Source: a virus (Duplodnaviria; Heunggongvirae; Uroviricota; Caudoviricetes). From it: a stretch of 19,570 nucleotides of DNA. How positions within the stretch are numbered: the stretch's first letter is position 1; each line of letters begins with the position of its first letter. Both the position numbers and the translations under genes were made by a program. The notes under the pieces are model-generated. The model ran no database searches and had not been told where the DNA came from. It saw only the letters and a list, made by a program, of their open reading frames with translations. The stretch lies in the IMG/VR virus record IMGVR_UViG_2541047862_000007. The stretch is one strand, 5' to 3'. Of the stretch, positions 1,501 through 7,135 are shown piece after piece.

Positions 1501-1728
1501 GATTAAGATAGTTTACCTGAAATTATCCAAATAATTGTTTTAACTGATTAATTTTTCGAATATCTATTGTTAGGGAATAAATCATCAGATACACCATAAA
1601 ACGACATCTTTCAGGGTGTAGAAGATGCAAAGCTGGTATTGAAGAAAAGACAAAGAATATGAATGGCTGGCCACACGATGGAAGGATTGTCCATTGAGGG
1701 ATAAATCCCCGTGGTACAAGTTTTGGTA

Positions 1729-1751
1729 AACCCGCGCTGCGGGCTTTTTTG
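1729..1751 (+). terminator. Putative rho-independent terminator (orphan, plus strand)
   Basis: CCCGC-GCT-GCGGG hairpin followed by CTTTTTT; no convincing upstream plus-strand CDS. Confidence 0.4.
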
Positions 1752-1971
1752 TGGACGAAACAAAAGTCAGTGCTACACTCATTGACGCCACATCGAGGTG
1801 GCTTATAGATGGAAATGTCACAATGAAAAAAGCATTTGCTGCACTGTTCTCTGGTGGCTTCAACTCAGGCCTTTGCCGGTCGTTGTCAGCACGACAGCGA
1901 TACTGCCGCTGACGGCTCCCGCTGCGGTGGGCGTTCTGCTGATTCCCGCCCGGGCGGCGGTGGCATTCGTT

Positions 1972-1996
1972 AAAAACAAGGCCGCGAAAGCGGCCT
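1972..1996 (-). terminator. Putative rho-independent terminator closing the cargo operon
   Basis: Minus strand reads AGGCCGC-TTTC-GCGGCCT followed by TGTTTTT, about 9 nt after the stop of the 104-aa gene. Confidence 0.55.
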
Positions 1997-2004
1997 GTGA
2001 CATG

Positions 2005-2319
2005 TCACGATAGTTCCGTTTTGTTGAATTCAATTATATCAAGGTCAGAACTTTCGTAATCCTTACCGAATAAAGCAAAACATATCGCGTCAAGTTCTCT
2101 CTTATGTTTGGACGCCCGATCATAATTACCACCCCAACAGCAAATGAATCCACCAAGTACTGCTGATTCAAAAAGTAATGATGCTGCATCAATATGTCTG
2201 AACCAGGAGTCTATAAGTAAAGCAGAGAGTGATATTAATGTTCCCCACCCGCCAATCCTTCTCCATTTCTCAGCTTCATATTTAAGAGAAGCAATATATT
2301 CAATTTTATCTCTCGTCAT
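2005..2319 (-). CDS. Small membrane protein, 104 aa, two predicted transmembrane helices; function unknown
   Basis: Start codon overlaps the stop of the upstream large gene (ATGA); hydrophobic segments GGWGTLISLSALLI and AVLGGFICCWGG; followed by a terminator. Confidence 0.6.
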   Translation of the reverse strand: MTRDKIEYIASLKYEAEKWRRIGGWGTLISLSALLIDSWFRHIDAASLLFESAVLGGFICCWGGNYDRASKHKRELDAICFALFGKDYESSDLDIIEFNKTELS

Positions 2320-5075
2320 CAGTTCCCCACCGCCTTTCCAAAATCCGGTGCTCTACGTGGCGCAATAGCACCCGGTTCCCACCAACTCGTTATGTCGAAC
2401 TCCCGTTGCGAGCGGTCCCTTACTCGATCATTGTAACCAGGGTTTGCCATCTCCTGAAGTTGTTGCAATATCAGGTGATTGGTTATCGCTTTCGCATACC
2501 ACAGGTTTGCGAATGGGGTGATCATGCGGGCTGTTTTCAGTGCATCGGCACCGAATGATGTTTCTTCACCCTGTAGAGCCTTCTGTGGGTTAGTAATCAG
2601 TAATTTTGTTAACTGCTCTGCAAAGCTCAACACAGGGCCCCCCATAGTGGCACCGATGCTGGAGCCATATTGCGTATGGTCCTGGAAAATAAAATCACCG
2701 TAGATACCGAACGAACCACCTTTCAGTAAAGCCTGAACCCATGTGGTTGGTTTTGTCATATCCAGCGGATCATTACCATTTAACAAACTGTTCATCTGGA
2801 TCGCAAACATACCAGCAAGAGTTGTTCCCCCGATATATGAGGCCAGAAATTTAATGGCCGGAACGGTGTCCAAATCCCGTGTTCTGTTAACAAGTTGCCG
2901 AAATCCAGCAAATGGGGTTGTTTTGAAGAGCATGAAGCTCTTCATTAACTCGCCAGCATCATCACGGGCATATGTATCAATACCCGTAGCGGTGGTCACA
3001 GCATTGGTCATCTCACCGTGCGTAATTCCCAGCAATTTCTGGGCTGCTTCAGCGCGTGCATTACGAATCATGCGCGTGATGGTCTGCTCAGCCTCAGCGT
3101 CGAATGCTTCTTTCATCCGTTTCAGGCGTTCTGGAGGGAGATCTCCAAGGGCTGCCAGTGCCTTTTCACTCCCGGCACGAATCCGGGTAATACGGTCTGC
3201 CATAATGTCGGCTATTACGTTATCGGGCACAGCGTAAATCGCGTCTGGCGTCATCCCCATATGCCCGGCAGTAGTCATCGGCCTGAGTTCTGCCGCTGCC
3301 ATGATGGCCCAGTCCTCATTGCTCCATCCCTTGTTAGCCAGAATGGTTTTATCGGTTCCTTTCATATCGTCCAGCGTCTTAAATTTTCTGGTCAGCTCGC
3401 CAATGTTTTTGTACATCAGGAGACCAAACGACGCTTTGTTTGCGCGGTCCATAGCGATCAGCCCGGACCACTTCAGTGTCTTCTCTGCGAACCAGCCAGT
3501 TATGCCGCGAGACAAGTCAAACCCGCCCATTTTCGAAACCACAGCAGCATGTGAATCCACCAGCAGACCGAGTTCAGCATTCGCCTTTTTGGCATCTCCA
3601 CTAAACAGGTTTTTGATAGTGTTAACGGAAAGCCGCATTCCACCACGGGTAAAGCCCAGCGCCTGCGCATTTGCCCGCATAATTGCCTGGTCGCTGGTTG
3701 CTGTCAGTACGCTGGTGCCAAGCATGGCGCTGGTCATCAGGTTACGCAGACCACCAACTGCTGAAGAGAACACACTCGATGAAGCGACACCATTTAGGCC
3801 AGCCATTGAGTTGAACATACGGGCAACTAATTTGGCCTCATCCTCCATTTCTTTTTTGCGTTTCCCGCCTGTTACTGCGCGCTTATAGATGCGATCCAGT
3901 ACCAGGGAAAAGTTTCTTTCGGCGTCCGGACCAAAGGCTTTAACGACGCCCAAATCCCTGGATGATGATTGCAGGTGCGACATCATCACCCCCACCAGCG
4001 GCTGCTGAGTGTATCGCTCCATATAGGCGAAGTGTGACTGCGCATCCTTGAACGCCATCACCCTGTGCTGAGAACCACGGCTCTTTATTCCTCCGGCTCC
4101 CATAAATGTACCAGGCTCAATTTTGTTTGCCCCATCAGTGGCCTTCGTTTCAAAGATCGCTTCCAGTGCCTGACGGTACTCGACGTCATTCATAATGCTG
4201 CCGTCAGGATTAACGTAATTGCTGCGATCCTGCGTGTTGTAAGCGTCATCAACCCATTTCTGGCGGGCAAACTCAATCGGTGGCTGGCGACCTGAAAGAC
4301 GTGCTGTAGCTTGCTCTGCCACTGGTAACGATGCCAGCCATTCTTCGCGCCCGGCATTGCGAATAAGGTCAGCATCATCCACATATGGCGTATGCCAGTC
4401 TTCTCGCAGGCCTATGTCAAAGCCATTGTCGTTCATCTCATGACGAACACGGCCTGTTACATCCTTCCAAATCTGTGCAATTTTCTTCGCCAGGGGATTC
4501 CCGGTATCTTCGCCATATATTTCTTTCAGGATCTGGAGTTGTGCAGACTTTGCCGCCTGCCTGTCGAATACACTCCGAAACCGCTGCTCTCCAAGCGCCC
4601 TGCTCTGCTCGAAGAATTTGCGGACGTCATCACCTGCTTTTAGAAGTTCAGCACTGAGCTGACGGGACCAGTCCTGATATGCCCCAATTGCAAGCTCTTC
4701 AGCAGAAGTAACGGAGATATCAGCTTTGTCTCTCGATCGTCGGCCAGCAAAAATAAACTGCTGCAAATTAACAGGTGTCTGCTGATCAGGCGGGATGTTA
4801 GCATCGAGAGTGTCAGTAATTTTACTGATGGCGATCGCATTCTGGGCAACACGCTGTCTTTTCTTGTACACATCATGAACCACACGCTGGCGAACCAGTT
4901 CTGCAGCATCCATGTATGTTTGAGCATCAGGAATACCACTTTTGCCTTCCATTGCATTCTTTCTGTGCACTTGCCGCACAGCTTCTTTGATACGATCTTC
5001 GATATTTTTCAGCTCATCAGCCTTTGGCTGGCGACCAAGTGTCTGCGCAATAGCTTCAACACATGCCTGTTTCAT
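2319..5075 (-). CDS. Large hypothetical protein (about 918 aa from the ATG at 5075; 925 aa if the alternative start at 5096 is used); Ala/Gly/Ser-rich, no signal peptide, no P-loop
   Basis: Long uninterrupted ORF; ATG at 5075 has a GAGGAA Shine-Dalgarno 7 nt upstream and overlaps the upstream stop as TAATG; stop overlaps the start of the downstream membrane-protein gene. Confidence 0.85.
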   Translation of the reverse strand: MKQACVEAIAQTLGRQPKADELKNIEDRIKEAVRQVHRKNAMEGKSGIPDAQTYMDAAELVRQRVVHDVYKKRQRVAQNAIAISKITDTLDANIPPDQQTPVNLQQFIFAGRRSRDKADISVTSAEELAIGAYQDWSRQLSAELLKAGDDVRKFFEQSRALGEQRFRSVFDRQAAKSAQLQILKEIYGEDTGNPLAKKIAQIWKDVTGRVRHEMNDNGFDIGLREDWHTPYVDDADLIRNAGREEWLASLPVAEQATARLSGRQPPIEFARQKWVDDAYNTQDRSNYVNPDGSIMNDVEYRQALEAIFETKATDGANKIEPGTFMGAGGIKSRGSQHRVMAFKDAQSHFAYMERYTQQPLVGVMMSHLQSSSRDLGVVKAFGPDAERNFSLVLDRIYKRAVTGGKRKKEMEDEAKLVARMFNSMAGLNGVASSSVFSSAVGGLRNLMTSAMLGTSVLTATSDQAIMRANAQALGFTRGGMRLSVNTIKNLFSGDAKKANAELGLLVDSHAAVVSKMGGFDLSRGITGWFAEKTLKWSGLIAMDRANKASFGLLMYKNIGELTRKFKTLDDMKGTDKTILANKGWSNEDWAIMAAAELRPMTTAGHMGMTPDAIYAVPDNVIADIMADRITRIRAGSEKALAALGDLPPERLKRMKEAFDAEAEQTITRMIRNARAEAAQKLLGITHGEMTNAVTTATGIDTYARDDAGELMKSFMLFKTTPFAGFRQLVNRTRDLDTVPAIKFLASYIGGTTLAGMFAIQMNSLLNGNDPLDMTKPTTWVQALLKGGSFGIYGDFIFQDHTQYGSSIGATMGGPVLSFAEQLTKLLITNPQKALQGEETSFGADALKTARMITPFANLWYAKAITNHLILQQLQEMANPGYNDRVRDRSQREFDITSWWEPGAIAPRRAPDFGKAVGN

Positions 5076-7135
5076 TATGGGTTCCTCAAGAAGCACGCTG
5101 CCGCTACAGAATAAACCTTCGATTCGTTCTGGACTGTCTTAATCTGTTCATCCAACTCAGCCAGGAGATCAGAAAGTTTTGTCGGGTTTCCGGTTTCCGG
5201 GTGAGCTATAGTCAGCTCAGGATTGGCAACAGCCATGTCCCTAGCAGCCATAAGGTCATAGCTGTTGGATGAGAGAACCTGCCCTGTATCTGGATCAACG
5301 CTGACGTCCCCTCTGTGTTCACCAGCCGATGAGAAAGCACTTTCAGCACGAGGGACAGGCGATTCACTAATTGGCTCTGATGATGTTTCATATCTGACAC
5401 CATTTTCTTCAAAAACCTTTTGTATTTCATGGTATTGCTCTTGGTAAGTATCAGATATATCTGATCGCAATGGACCATCAAGCCCTCGCGCCATCCCCCC
5501 AACATTTACAGGCTGACCATCATTAAGTTGCCTGTATGCTTCATCCATGGCGTCAACATGGCTGTTGATGCTCTCATTGCTGGTGTGAAGCACTGGTGAC
5601 GATTCAATATCGTAATGAAGCCCCTCATTCAAAATGTGGGCTGCATCAATATCGCTTGGTTTTATTCTTTCCCTCGCCCGGATACCAAAAACTTTTTCTA
5701 CTGCGGCTTCCAGTTTCATATTGCGAAGACGCATACTTACGAGTAACCGTAACTGCTCAGGTGTAACGGTTCCAACCTGAATACCACTGTATCTGAATAT
5801 ATAGGCTTTAAAACCTGAAATAATTTTTTCCCATGATGAAACGCTTGTCTTTAGAGATGGATTTACTGCATGTGCGGCAACTTCTTCAGCGTACAACCAC
5901 TCAGGATATGTTTCAGGGTACTCACCCCTTTTCTTATATTCATAATATTGTGACATCCCATATGCAAATTCAGGATAGTCAGAATGCTTGTTTGCAGATT
6001 TAAGTACAGCATTAGCTAGCTTTCTGGCCTTCCAGTCAGGGTAATGGCGCTGCTCAAGATGAAGCGCCTCGTGATGAAGGGTTTCTAACAGTTCTTCATG
6101 GTCTTTTAATCCATTAATATTTATTCTTATTATTGGTTCTTTTCCAGAAGCTACTGTCACATGACCTTTATTCAGAAGTATTTCTCCATCACTATTTTTT
6201 ATTGCTGGTTCATTAATAAGTTCTATTACTCCTGAATCAGATAAATCACGAACCATTGACTCAATGTTACCATCAGGAGATTGCTGATAATGTTCACCAA
6301 AAGTTGATTTTATTTCTTCTGCAGAAATGTTCGACTCTGTACCATCATGGTTATTATGGGTAGTCAGGTGATGAACGCCACCAAAGACCCCGCCTAAAAC
6401 GGCATCGACTAACATCGCCTGACCGTCAAATACCCGGTACTGTTTTGCCATCTCCGTGTAGCCTTTTTCCTCCAGTGTTGCGCCGACAGAGTAACGGTTC
6501 AGTCCACCGAATCCGGTGTTGATTGCCACACCTGAGGCAATGCGCGTTGCCAGTGTGGTGCCGACGGCAGCGGGTAAGGCCATACCCACAGCATTGAAAA
6601 GGCTTTGCTGCGTTGCCAGGTTACGCGCCGTAGCCTCGTCTACTCCCTTCCCTTTAAAATCCTGATAGGACTGCTCATACGTAGAACTGAAAGCTGTAGC
6701 AGCGCCGATGAGGGGACCGCCAAACATAGTTGTTCCGATTGCAGGAACAAATTTACCAAGCTCATTTAATACCTCAGCCGCCATTCCCTGACTGCCTGCA
6801 TCAGGCTTCACATAGCTGCGGGCATCCTGTAACTGTTTTCCGATCGTGTCGTATGTATCATTCAGTGTTTTGTCAGCATCAGGGAACATCTCCCGAAAAA
6901 TATTAACAGTCGGTGCCACGTCTGCGGTAAATGCCGGATCGCTAATCAGGCGCTTGCTGAATCCGACGGCAGACTGCGCGAGACCGAGAGTCCCCTCCGC
7001 CACGCCGCTCAAAAGTGCAGTACCTGAACCCTGGAAGGGAGTCGGATCGTAGTCTTCTGGCCTTGCTGGGTTGGCAACTGTTTTGTCGTCAATCCATGCC
7101 TGACCTTCTGGAGCCAAAGAAAAAACATCAGACAT
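5075..7135 (-). CDS. Large hypothetical protein, 686 aa, glycine-zipper-like N-terminal region and a central HEALH (HExxH) motif; candidate zinc metallopeptidase-like domain
   Basis: Long ORF with ATGA overlap to the upstream gene; LHHEALHLEQRHY motif encoded near 6059-6073; central segment markedly more AT-rich than the flanks. Confidence 0.85.
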   Translation of the reverse strand: MSDVFSLAPEGQAWIDDKTVANPARPEDYDPTPFQGSGTALLSGVAEGTLGLAQSAVGFSKRLISDPAFTADVAPTVNIFREMFPDADKTLNDTYDTIGKQLQDARSYVKPDAGSQGMAAEVLNELGKFVPAIGTTMFGGPLIGAATAFSSTYEQSYQDFKGKGVDEATARNLATQQSLFNAVGMALPAAVGTTLATRIASGVAINTGFGGLNRYSVGATLEEKGYTEMAKQYRVFDGQAMLVDAVLGGVFGGVHHLTTHNNHDGTESNISAEEIKSTFGEHYQQSPDGNIESMVRDLSDSGVIELINEPAIKNSDGEILLNKGHVTVASGKEPIIRININGLKDHEELLETLHHEALHLEQRHYPDWKARKLANAVLKSANKHSDYPEFAYGMSQYYEYKKRGEYPETYPEWLYAEEVAAHAVNPSLKTSVSSWEKIISGFKAYIFRYSGIQVGTVTPEQLRLLVSMRLRNMKLEAAVEKVFGIRARERIKPSDIDAAHILNEGLHYDIESSPVLHTSNESINSHVDAMDEAYRQLNDGQPVNVGGMARGLDGPLRSDISDTYQEQYHEIQKVFEENGVRYETSSEPISESPVPRAESAFSSAGEHRGDVSVDPDTGQVLSSNSYDLMAARDMAVANPELTIAHPETGNPTKLSDLLAELDEQIKTVQNESKVYSVAAACFLRNP

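Follow-up and report, generated by a model that had tools for sequence, protein, structure and literature searches.

The gene at positions 5075 to 7135 (minus strand) of a 19,570-nt Caudoviricetes virus record (IMG/VR IMGVR_UViG_2541047862_000007; this whole stretch of DNA is called the window throughout) is predicted to encode a 686-amino acid (aa) ejection protein of an epsilon15-type podophage set. The center of this protein appears to be a slot that is occupied by unrelated modules in different family members, and in the window it holds a 227-aa, AT-rich cassette with an HExxH motif that is very probably an inserted MPTase-type zincin domain. Taken as a whole, the interpretation that we favor, in which an ejection-protein slot holds a horizontally gained zincin that is delivered as a peptidase, seems modestly probable. 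The parts of the gene on which this interpretation rests are as follows.

5075-7135, minus strand: 686-aa gene, predicted middle ejection (internal virion) protein of the epsilon15-type trio (open reading frame (ORF); PHROG 1145, E 5.5e-137; synteny)
6347-7135, minus strand: conserved N module, aa 1-263, with Gly/Ala-rich, moderately hydrophobic segments (near-invariant in 17 family members)
5666-6346, minus strand: exchangeable central cassette, aa 264-490, 227 aa, AT-rich (replaced in other family members; GC content 0.385)
5696-6268, minus strand: predicted zincin-like (MPTase-type) domain core, aa 290-480 (hhalign against 14 domains of giant virion proteins)
6059-6073, minus strand: HEALH (H355, E356, H359), putative zinc-binding and catalytic motif (conservation; aligned with HELVH of the N4 virion RNA polymerase (vRNAP))
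5882-5887, minus strand: E417-E418 in AEEVAAH, putative third zinc ligand on the 'Glu helix' (invariant EE..A)
6044-6046, minus strand: H364, non-conserved His (Asn in allele P0003; no family counterpart)
5078-5665, minus strand: conserved C module, aa 491-686 (kept across the family; DNA identity to phage E15)

An exchangeable slot in a predicted ejection protein

Judged from its sequence, the 686-aa gene is the middle member of an epsilon15-type ejection-protein set, because of its PHROG matches, its synteny with a prophage of Salmonella Anatum, and the DNA identity of its 3′ part to Salmonella phage E15. Specifically, the epsilon15-type Anatum prophage carries a 521-aa homologue between genes for 842-aa and 918-aa proteins, and this trio follows a T7_gp14-like gene and is set between the head genes and the tail spike. 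The identity to E15 amounts to 74.5% over positions 5075-5666, a stretch that covers the C module and ends one base into the cassette. The N module contains hydrophobic stretches at aa 39-59, 126-150, 173-207, and 235-259, with a maximum Kyte-Doolittle (KD) value of 1.1-1.34.

An alignment of 17 family members reveals near-invariant N and C modules that enclose three unrelated central fillings. The first is a short Pro/Ala-rich linker of ~60 aa (the 521-aa class), the second is a coiled-coil-like insert of ~110 aa (the 629-636-aa class), and the third is the HExxH cassette (the 686/690-aa class). PHROG 1145 covers the flanks of the 686-aa protein and not its center. An earlier note on this DNA, made from its letters alone, had proposed that a domain of different origin lies in a larger scaffold, and this proposal is supported by the conserved flanks with their three fillings, by the restriction of PHROG 1145 to the flanks, and by the deviant codon usage described below. 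The center of the protein is, on these alignments, a variable slot with exchangeable modules, in the manner of modular phage evolution.

Among the family members aligned, the HExxH cassette occurs in only two alleles, namely that of the P0001 cluster (339 member sequences, including the window allele) and that of P0003, which comes from an 11-kb contig with a gp14-like gene upstream. The two alleles are 71% identical overall and 63% identical within the cassette. The ratio of nonsynonymous to synonymous substitution rates (dN/dS) for the cassette is ~0.08-0.11, a rough value because synonymous sites are saturated. This low ratio between the alleles indicates that the cassette is an expressed and constrained protein domain.

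The coiled-coil-like filling, found in P0004, P0007, P0035, and others (alignment columns ~265-470), is helical, with the sequence …LLSRGDRKVWQSE…YEARADLSRIQQGIIPESMRGLV, and its hosts are Enterobacter, Klebsiella, Salmonella, and E. coli. Pfam gave no match for this ~110-aa alternative insert of the 630-aa class, which may be another cargo. Promoter and terminator scans of the 686-aa gene were no richer than those of shuffled sequence, and there was no Rfam match within the gene.

Distant relatives of the cassette in giant virion proteins

The cassette has no Pfam match at E values up to 10 and no PDB sequence match. Stray sub-threshold Pfam matches were to Tox-MPTase2 (E 0.1), SprT-like (0.086), and WLM (0.1), and a PDB profile search listed minigluzincins only at E 1.2-1.6. 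When 1.84 billion representatives were searched exhaustively with phmmer, the only match was to a 74-aa fragment of the 686-aa protein itself. A word-indexed protein search with the cassette also gave no match, a limitation of the tool given that the parent protein itself was missed. Searches of GTDB species genomes, IMG/VR, and JGI metagenomes that were meant to find a closer relative or a donor of AT-rich composition recovered nothing but near-identical copies from E. coli.

A weak tblastn match identified a 4511-aa 'DarB-like' protein from Ralstonia phage Gervaise (pairwise BLASTP E 7e-10). The layout of this protein region is that of the cassette: a strand ending in GTIHMVGANL, the motif LLHEMFH, a helical insert, EEFGAYAIE, and W...IKAWLLRRLGTQIGAVTPAQLRAL. 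A profile search added seven further members from metagenomic or genomic fragments, some of them fused to ART-PolyVal or PBECR1. The domain is present in 56 phage records, and all 40 of the 40 matches listed are inside a large ORF, many annotated as 'DarB-like/PLxRFG'; nine domain-bearing ORFs that were retrieved measure ~1560-4840 aa. Carriers include Bcep22-like, Ralstonia GP4-like, Pseudomonas, Serratia, Ochrobactrum, and Klebsiella phages, as well as two plasmid records. In Bcep22 gp75 the domain occupies aa ~3494-3661 between LPD3 and LPD38, where Pfam leaves it unannotated, and across its relatives the neighboring domains are LPD3, LPD38, ART-PolyVal, and PBECR1.

These relationships were quantified by using three alignments: A8 with the two cassette alleles, A9 with 14 giant-protein domains, and A5 with the family including the window rows. 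Comparison of A8 with A9 by hhalign gives a probability of 98.1% (E 6.8e-14) over 159 columns. Against aa 2130-2448 of the N4 vRNAP, the corresponding values are 91.6% for A5 (E 8e-7) and 82.1% for A9 (E 1e-5), and an unrelated N4 segment used as a negative control gives 0.1%. On this sequence evidence, the cassette is homologous to an unannotated module of giant 'DarB-like' virion proteins.

Previous work places these relatives in virions. JC1 gp69, a homologue, is virion-associated by mass spectrometry (PMC9144972), and the N4 vRNAP is expelled into the cell with ejection proteins (PMC13434306). Moreover, the N4 region, which is the archetype for zincin-like MPTase domains in polyvalent proteins, has been unified with lethal factor (LF) via HHpred (Iyer et al., 2017; PMC5512222). 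The MPTase core described there comprises a helix, three strands, the HExxH helix, and the Glu helix (PMC5512222).

Conserved residues and a predicted lethal-factor-like fold

The HEALH sequence lies exactly where the earlier note had put it, at positions 6059-6073 (aa 355-359). The motif alone is weak evidence, since 0.17 HExxH occurrences are expected by chance over all ORFs of the window (0.02 for a single protein as long as this one); what gives it weight is that it is conserved in homologues with about 25% identity. Specifically, in a 16-sequence alignment of domains that are 18-29% identical to that of the window, H355, E356, E417, E418, and A421 are invariant and H359 is nearly invariant, with one family member exhibiting HExxxH spacing. 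The residues E417 and E418 follow H359 by 58-59 residues in the sequence AEEVAAH, which is predicted to be helical. Because these positions read N-E in N4, E418 is the better ligand candidate. HEALH also falls in a predicted helix, both in the window model (H85-99) and in that of a homologue (H52-69).

Several more familiar enzyme classes can be rejected. The sequence HEALHLEQRH has no Gly at +3 and its third His is at +5 rather than +6, in agreement with the earlier view that this is not a metzincin (HExxHxxGxxH plus a Met-turn). The third His itself (H364, positions 6044-6046) is not a ligand, because the one other allele, P0003, has Asn at this position and the wider family lacks a corresponding His. 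A thermolysin-type (M4) enzyme is ruled out because the Glu is 58-59 residues downstream rather than ~20 and there is no NExxSD; the earlier statement that no thermolysin-type Glu is evident was right as to spacing, but an invariant downstream Glu pair does exist. The earlier note had left the class unclear and suggested a metal-dependent hydrolase. The latter suggestion fits the zincin-like homology and motif, and the former can now be replaced: HExxH followed 58-59 residues later by Glu on another helix is the lethal-factor/gluzincin arrangement, so that the enzyme class is resolved, at the level of motif and homology, as lethal-factor-like gluzincin.

It is highly improbable that the cassette belongs to some other HExxH class, whether metzincin, thermolysin-type, or a non-peptidase such as an alpha-KG-HExxH hydroxylase or a peptidoglycan hydrolase. 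To its credit, this alternative can point to the occurrence of HExxH in radical-SAM-associated alpha-KG-HExxH enzymes (PMC13434306), and to the fact that an ejection protein crosses the periplasm, where wall cleavage would be useful. The peptidoglycan-hydrolase version is ruled out on motif spacing and conservation. Separately, the 843-aa product of the upstream gene matches PHROG 7182 ('tail injection transglycosylase') over aa 244-363, which include GIRNNNPGNL…, and also endolysin-annotated PHROGs. Because this region matches endolysin and transglycosylase families, wall cutting is probably the task of the 843-aa protein and not of the HExxH cassette.

Structure prediction gave models of uneven quality. 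The AlphaFold2 (AF2) model of the window cassette is unreliable (predicted local distance difference test (pLDDT) score of 53.6), whereas a homologue, P0124, modeled from the same shallow alignment reaches a pLDDT of 74.8 and a predicted template modeling (pTM) score of 0.69. The P0124 model consists of an N-terminal helix, three strands, the HExxH helix, two insert helices, the Glu helix, and two more helices (its first elements being H2-9, E13-16, E32-34, E40-43, and H52-69), and the order of secondary structure predicted for the window domain agrees with it, at low confidence. This architecture equals the core described previously (PMC5512222). The solved structures listed, with scores in parentheses, are the LF N-domain (6.0, 5.9), PPEP-2 (5.6), the edema factor N-domain (5.1), MtfA (4.6), PPEP-3 (4.6), and LF (4.4), and all of these have the lethal-factor-like zincin fold. 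A separate Foldseek search of the PDB with the P0124 model returned no significant match. The modeled fold is thus suggestive of a lethal-factor-like zincin, and it agrees with the independent HHpred link between N4 and LF (Iyer et al., 2017).

Codon usage and the origin of the cassette

Sliding-window analysis of guanine plus cytosine (GC) content and codon usage confirms that the composition of the ORF is non-uniform, as the earlier note had claimed for positions 5880-6420. This segment has a GC content of 0.388 (38.8%) compared with a mean of 0.494 (sd 0.044) over all 541-nt windows, only 1% of which are equally low, and it contains the GC minimum for the 19.6-kb window as a whole (0.362, start 5778). 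The description of the flanks as 50-55% GC is correct for the 5′ flank of the gene (52.9% at 6421-7135) and not for the 3′ flank, which is ~45-47% GC (45.3% at 5075-5879). Similarly, the dip stands while its limits do not: the natural unit is the cassette at 5666-6346 (aa 264-490), and the interval 5880-6420 takes in 74 nt of the conserved N module and omits the final third of the cassette.

The deviation is strongest for GC at third codon positions (GC3). In 30-codon bins, aa 271-360 have a GC content of 0.32-0.34 and a GC3 of 0.07-0.20. Among the 433 windows of 90 codons drawn from the 13 long ORFs, mean GC3 is 0.50 (sd 0.10) and the minimum is 0.13. The ten lowest are all in the 686-aa gene, six of them starting at aa 261-311, within the cassette, and four starting at aa 231-251 or 371.

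Could this AT-richness follow from a Lys/Glu/Ile/Asn-rich composition or from local mutational bias, rather than from a foreign origin? We consider this very unlikely, even though the residues alone lower the expected GC content to 0.468 for the cassette versus 0.524 for the N module, and even though the cassette of P0003 is much less AT-rich (GC3 0.23-0.43). The observed values are 8-12 points under the residue-based expectation (0.385 versus 0.468 for the cassette when local codon usage is included; 0.333 versus 0.45 for aa 271-360), GC3 drops to the extreme values given above, and the break in composition falls at the cassette boundary seen in the alignment, beyond which the N module has a GC content of 0.526. 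Amino-acid composition accounts for only part of the GC dip. Given the much lower AT content of the P0003 copy, the extreme codon bias belongs to the E. coli allele in particular.

Candidate roles of the inserted domain

We hypothesize that the N and C modules are conserved structural parts of the middle subunit of the epsilon15-type podophage ejection apparatus, and that a permissive slot between them holds different fillings in different lineages. Here the slot would be filled by a ~190-aa zincin-like, MPTase-type domain with a lethal-factor-like gluzincin layout, composed of an N-terminal helix, three strands, the H355-E356-x-x-H359 helix, a variable helical insert, and the E417/E418 helix. 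The cassette may have been gained horizontally from an AT-rich source by recombination in the conserved flanks, and would have retained foreign codon usage while under purifying selection. As part of the ejection protein, the domain would ride inside the capsid and exit the virion with the DNA. Zinc would be held by H355, H359, and E418, with E356 as the general base, and the resulting zinc-dependent peptidase would act in the newly infected cell, where its likeliest substrate would be a host or competitor protein. Catalytic activity of the cassette is fairly probable. A trans-acting effector role is possible, at somewhat less than an even chance.

Two arguments lead us to favor the effector role. 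Family scans of the window protein detect structural modules and the HExxH domain only, which leaves no other effector domain that could be released from it, and the plain-linker alleles show that the connection between the N and C modules need not be cut.

Several observations weigh against this proposal. No significant Pfam, NCBIfam-type, or PDB sequence match was obtained for any member of the domain, and the cassette alleles by themselves do not detect N4 (hhalign 0.75%), making the N4 link a transitive one. Protease activity has been demonstrated for no member of the domain type, including the structurally solved N4 C1 (PMC13434306). Furthermore, the E. coli gene sits in an island that has no capsid, portal, terminase, or gp14-like gene, and for this reason packaging and ejection of the E. 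coli copy are only putative. Finally, the sequence is compatible with both an effector role and self-processing.

Self-processing would mean that the domain cuts its own polypeptide, or its 843-aa or 925-aa neighbors, at head maturation or after ejection, thereby separating or activating the N and C modules instead of attacking host proteins. We regard this as fairly unlikely, although the processing of multidomain polypeptides is the main role predicted for polyvalent MPTase domains (Iyer et al., 2017; PMC5512222), P1 DdrB is cleaved ahead of packaging (PMC5512222), and the domain lies exactly between two structural modules. Against this, the alleles with a linker or a coiled coil evidently work without a protease, which makes a cut between the N and C modules dispensable; there is no other effector domain in the protein to be released; and the N4 vRNAP is packaged unprocessed (PMC5512222).

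Alternatively, the cassette might be a silent structural or packaging domain that acts as a spacer or an interaction surface, for example in encapsidation as reported for the N4 region, with HExxH being a relic or binding metal for stability only. This is quite unlikely, since the first H, the E, and the EE pair are invariant and the second H is nearly so across relatives with 18-29% identity from Burkholderia, Ralstonia, Pseudomonas, Serratia, Klebsiella, and Ochrobactrum phages. Inactive LF-like domains such as LF domain I have lost the HExxH motif, which likewise counts against a silent domain here. Regardless, self-processing and a purely structural role, which may apply to the N4 domain, for which no activity is known, remain serious rivals to the delivered-peptidase proposal.

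A genomic island that lacks capsid genes

The window corresponds to a ~20-kb, satellite-like integrative island (positions 1650-19570) between yicC and dinD in E. coli strain 20. In addition to the three ejection genes and a 104-aa ORF, the island encodes an integrase, Rha/AntA/BRO regulators, an Icd-like protein, a DUF927 primase, SSB, ProQ/FinO, and PerC. The features of the island that are considered below are as follows.

7135-9666, minus strand: 843-aa ejection protein, upstream of the 686-aa gene, with a transglycosylase-like region at aa ~243-364 (PHROG 992, E 1e-289)
2319-5096, minus strand: 925-aa ejection/virion structural protein, downstream of the 686-aa gene (PHROG 684, E 1.6e-295; syntenic with the 918-aa gene)
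18244-18311, minus strand: int-alpA RNA (RF02996), just downstream of the integrase (Rfam, 46.9 bits versus a gathering score of 35.8)
1-1197, up to ~1424, minus strand: IS110-family transposase (DEDD_Tnp_IS110 plus Transposase_20) at the island edge

Neither the window nor any other copy of the window allele contains a gp14-like gene or morphogenesis genes, and the island has no head, portal, terminase, tail, tail-spike, or lysis gene; a gp14-like neighbor is found with the P0003 allele only. The regulatory and replication half of the island is a common small integrative element of E. coli. Homology to epsilon15-like prophages covers positions ~1652-9666, and its end coincides with the start codon (9666) of the 843-aa gene. 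Of the viral and metagenomic copies recovered, all 11 are collinear with the window throughout their retrieved length, 8 of them as far as the primase, and none has a gp14-like gene. The full arrangement is carried by 26 complete E. coli genomes.

One explanation for this organization is that the trio is a decaying remnant of a deleted epsilon15-like prophage fused to the integrative element, in which case the cassette would be functionless in E. coli. The absence of gp14-like, capsid, portal, terminase, tail-spike, and lysis genes fits such decay, as do the IS110 element at the island edge and the existence of the frameshifted variant P0002. We nevertheless judge this explanation unlikely. 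The three ORFs, 7.4 kb in total, are intact, 37 complete genomes carry the gene at 99.3-100% identity (26 with the full island), and all metagenomic and viral-contig copies recovered share the arrangement. Moreover, the phage homology stops precisely where the first gene of the trio starts, as would be expected of module capture and not of random deletion. As for P0002 (640 aa, from a Logan contig), it is identical to the window allele through aa ~546 and then continues out of frame, indicating that some copies are decaying. The IS110 element is a strain-specific insertion, because a 99.9%-identical island in strain 82.0311 matches only from position 1425 on.

In a related island of E. coli O104:H4 C227-11, the same backbone from int to PerC carries other cargo in the position of the trio, including an AAA-ATPase/DUF4435 pair (locus 3067-5023) that resembles the PARIS defence pair. 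Because different cargo is present there, the trio position looks like a hotspot for accessory cargo. PADLOC found no defence-system match for the trio or for the small neighboring ORFs. A bolder proposal is that the island is a phage satellite, rather than a dead prophage, and that its accessory-cargo position now holds a captured ejectosome module, a precise set of three genes. This is doubtful, but if true, the satellite would, when an epsilon15-like helper infects the cell, load its own ejection proteins, one of them with a zinc-protease cargo, into the capsids that the helper builds. The purpose could be to secure or arm its own entry into new cells. Alternatively, the foreign ejectosome subunits could poison helper progeny as a form of anti-phage interference.

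Other observations concern the remainder of the island. The int-alpA motif is typical of integrase/AlpA-type mobile elements. A 396-aa ORF (14581-15771, minus strand) probably represents an artefactual in-frame extension. Family matches are confined to its ~90 C-terminal aa (Icd-like, 'repressor' PHROG 6196), and RefSeq annotates at this place only a partial Icd-like pseudogene and a plus-strand YlcI/YnfO gene. The AT skew turns to +0.3 at 15000-15450. The 104-aa ORF (2005-2319, minus strand) that follows the 925-aa gene has a GC3 of 0.28-0.29 and hydrophobic segments, with no family match, and the intergenic segment at 1501-1800 has a GC content of 0.39. A 267-aa ORF beside the integrase has a GC content of 0.39 and a strong negative GC skew at 17850-18150, and yields weak coiled-coil-type matches only. 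The PerC-family gene (10000-10340 in the window) is annotated as frameshifted in an identical RefSeq island (25028-25253) and is represented by short ORFs only in the window.

Significance and comparison with known systems

The type of domain, and the presence of zincin modules in injected phage proteins, are already known from computational work (PMC5512222), and a cryo-electron microscopy structure of the N4 copy was reported in 2026 (PMC13434306). Three aspects appear to be new, as we found no description of them in the literature: a subfamily that has no curated model, its occurrence as a cargo cassette that stands alone within a core ejectosome subunit, where it is one of at least three fillings, and its residence in a capsid-less island. 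We also found no paper that names the RefSeq accessions of the trio, nor any description of ejection genes carried by satellites.

These findings indicate that an internal slot is tolerated in a core ejectosome subunit of a temperate podophage and is used as a cargo bay. One of the commonest uncharacterized domains of the giant 'polyvalent' injected proteins can ride alone in a 686-aa protein, which is far more tractable than proteins of 3500-4600 aa for establishing the function, activity, and targets of the HExxH domain. The Pfam-less family captured in alignments A5 and A9 could become an annotation model. In addition, the analysis flags an E. coli island that keeps ejection genes without capsid genes.

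The cassette can be compared with five known systems. The first is the MPTase/C1 domain of the N4 vRNAP gp50 (aa ~2124-2448), which is related by hhalign homology with aligned HExxH and Glu-helix residues. The protein that contains it is packaged in the head of a podovirus and expelled along with the DNA. Unlike the cassette, it resides within a 3500-aa RNA polymerase and not in a core ejectosome subunit, and it has N-E in place of the E-E seen here.

The closest detectable relatives are the domains of giant DarB-like proteins, which share the motifs LLHExFH, EE[FV]xAY, and KAW..R.G.Q.G.VTP.QLR. Their carriers are Bcep22 gp75, JC1 gp69, Ralstonia GP4/Gervaise, Klebsiella Lastavirus, Serratia Parlo, and Pseudomonas Itty13/Skulduggery. 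These proteins are virion-associated. They are only 18-29% identical to the cassette, and the domain is one module of many in ORFs of ~3700-4840 aa (those that were architecture-checked or annotated as DarB-like/PLxRFG). For example, the modules of Bcep22 gp75 are SLT, methylase, SNF2 helicase, LPD3, the HExxH domain, and LPD38. The window version has an extra insert of ~18 residues ahead of the HExxH helix, and its AT-rich codons differ from those of the GC-rich DarB-like phages.

The middle ejection protein of the epsilon15 type, represented by the 521-aa form of Salmonella Anatum, has N and C modules that are 75-89% identical to those of the window protein and the same gene order. It differs in having a ~60-aa Pro/Ala linker where the 227-aa cassette is found here, and in belonging to a complete prophage with gp14-like, capsid, tail-spike, and lysis genes.

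The lethal-factor-like zincins (MEROPS M34/ATLF-like LF and PPEP-1/2/3, together with MtfA) are set apart from the cassette by the lack of a Pfam ATLF match or a significant PDB-profile match, and no residue in it obviously corresponds to the catalytic Tyr of LF and PPEP. The fifth system, MPTase-PolyVal (PF18818) of the ArdC/TraC1-type conjugative proteins, gives no match to any member of the domain at E values up to 10, and its carriers are plasmid-borne and usually paired with ArdC-N. Regardless, it belongs to the same predicted superfamily, and in both cases a zincin would enter the recipient together with incoming DNA.

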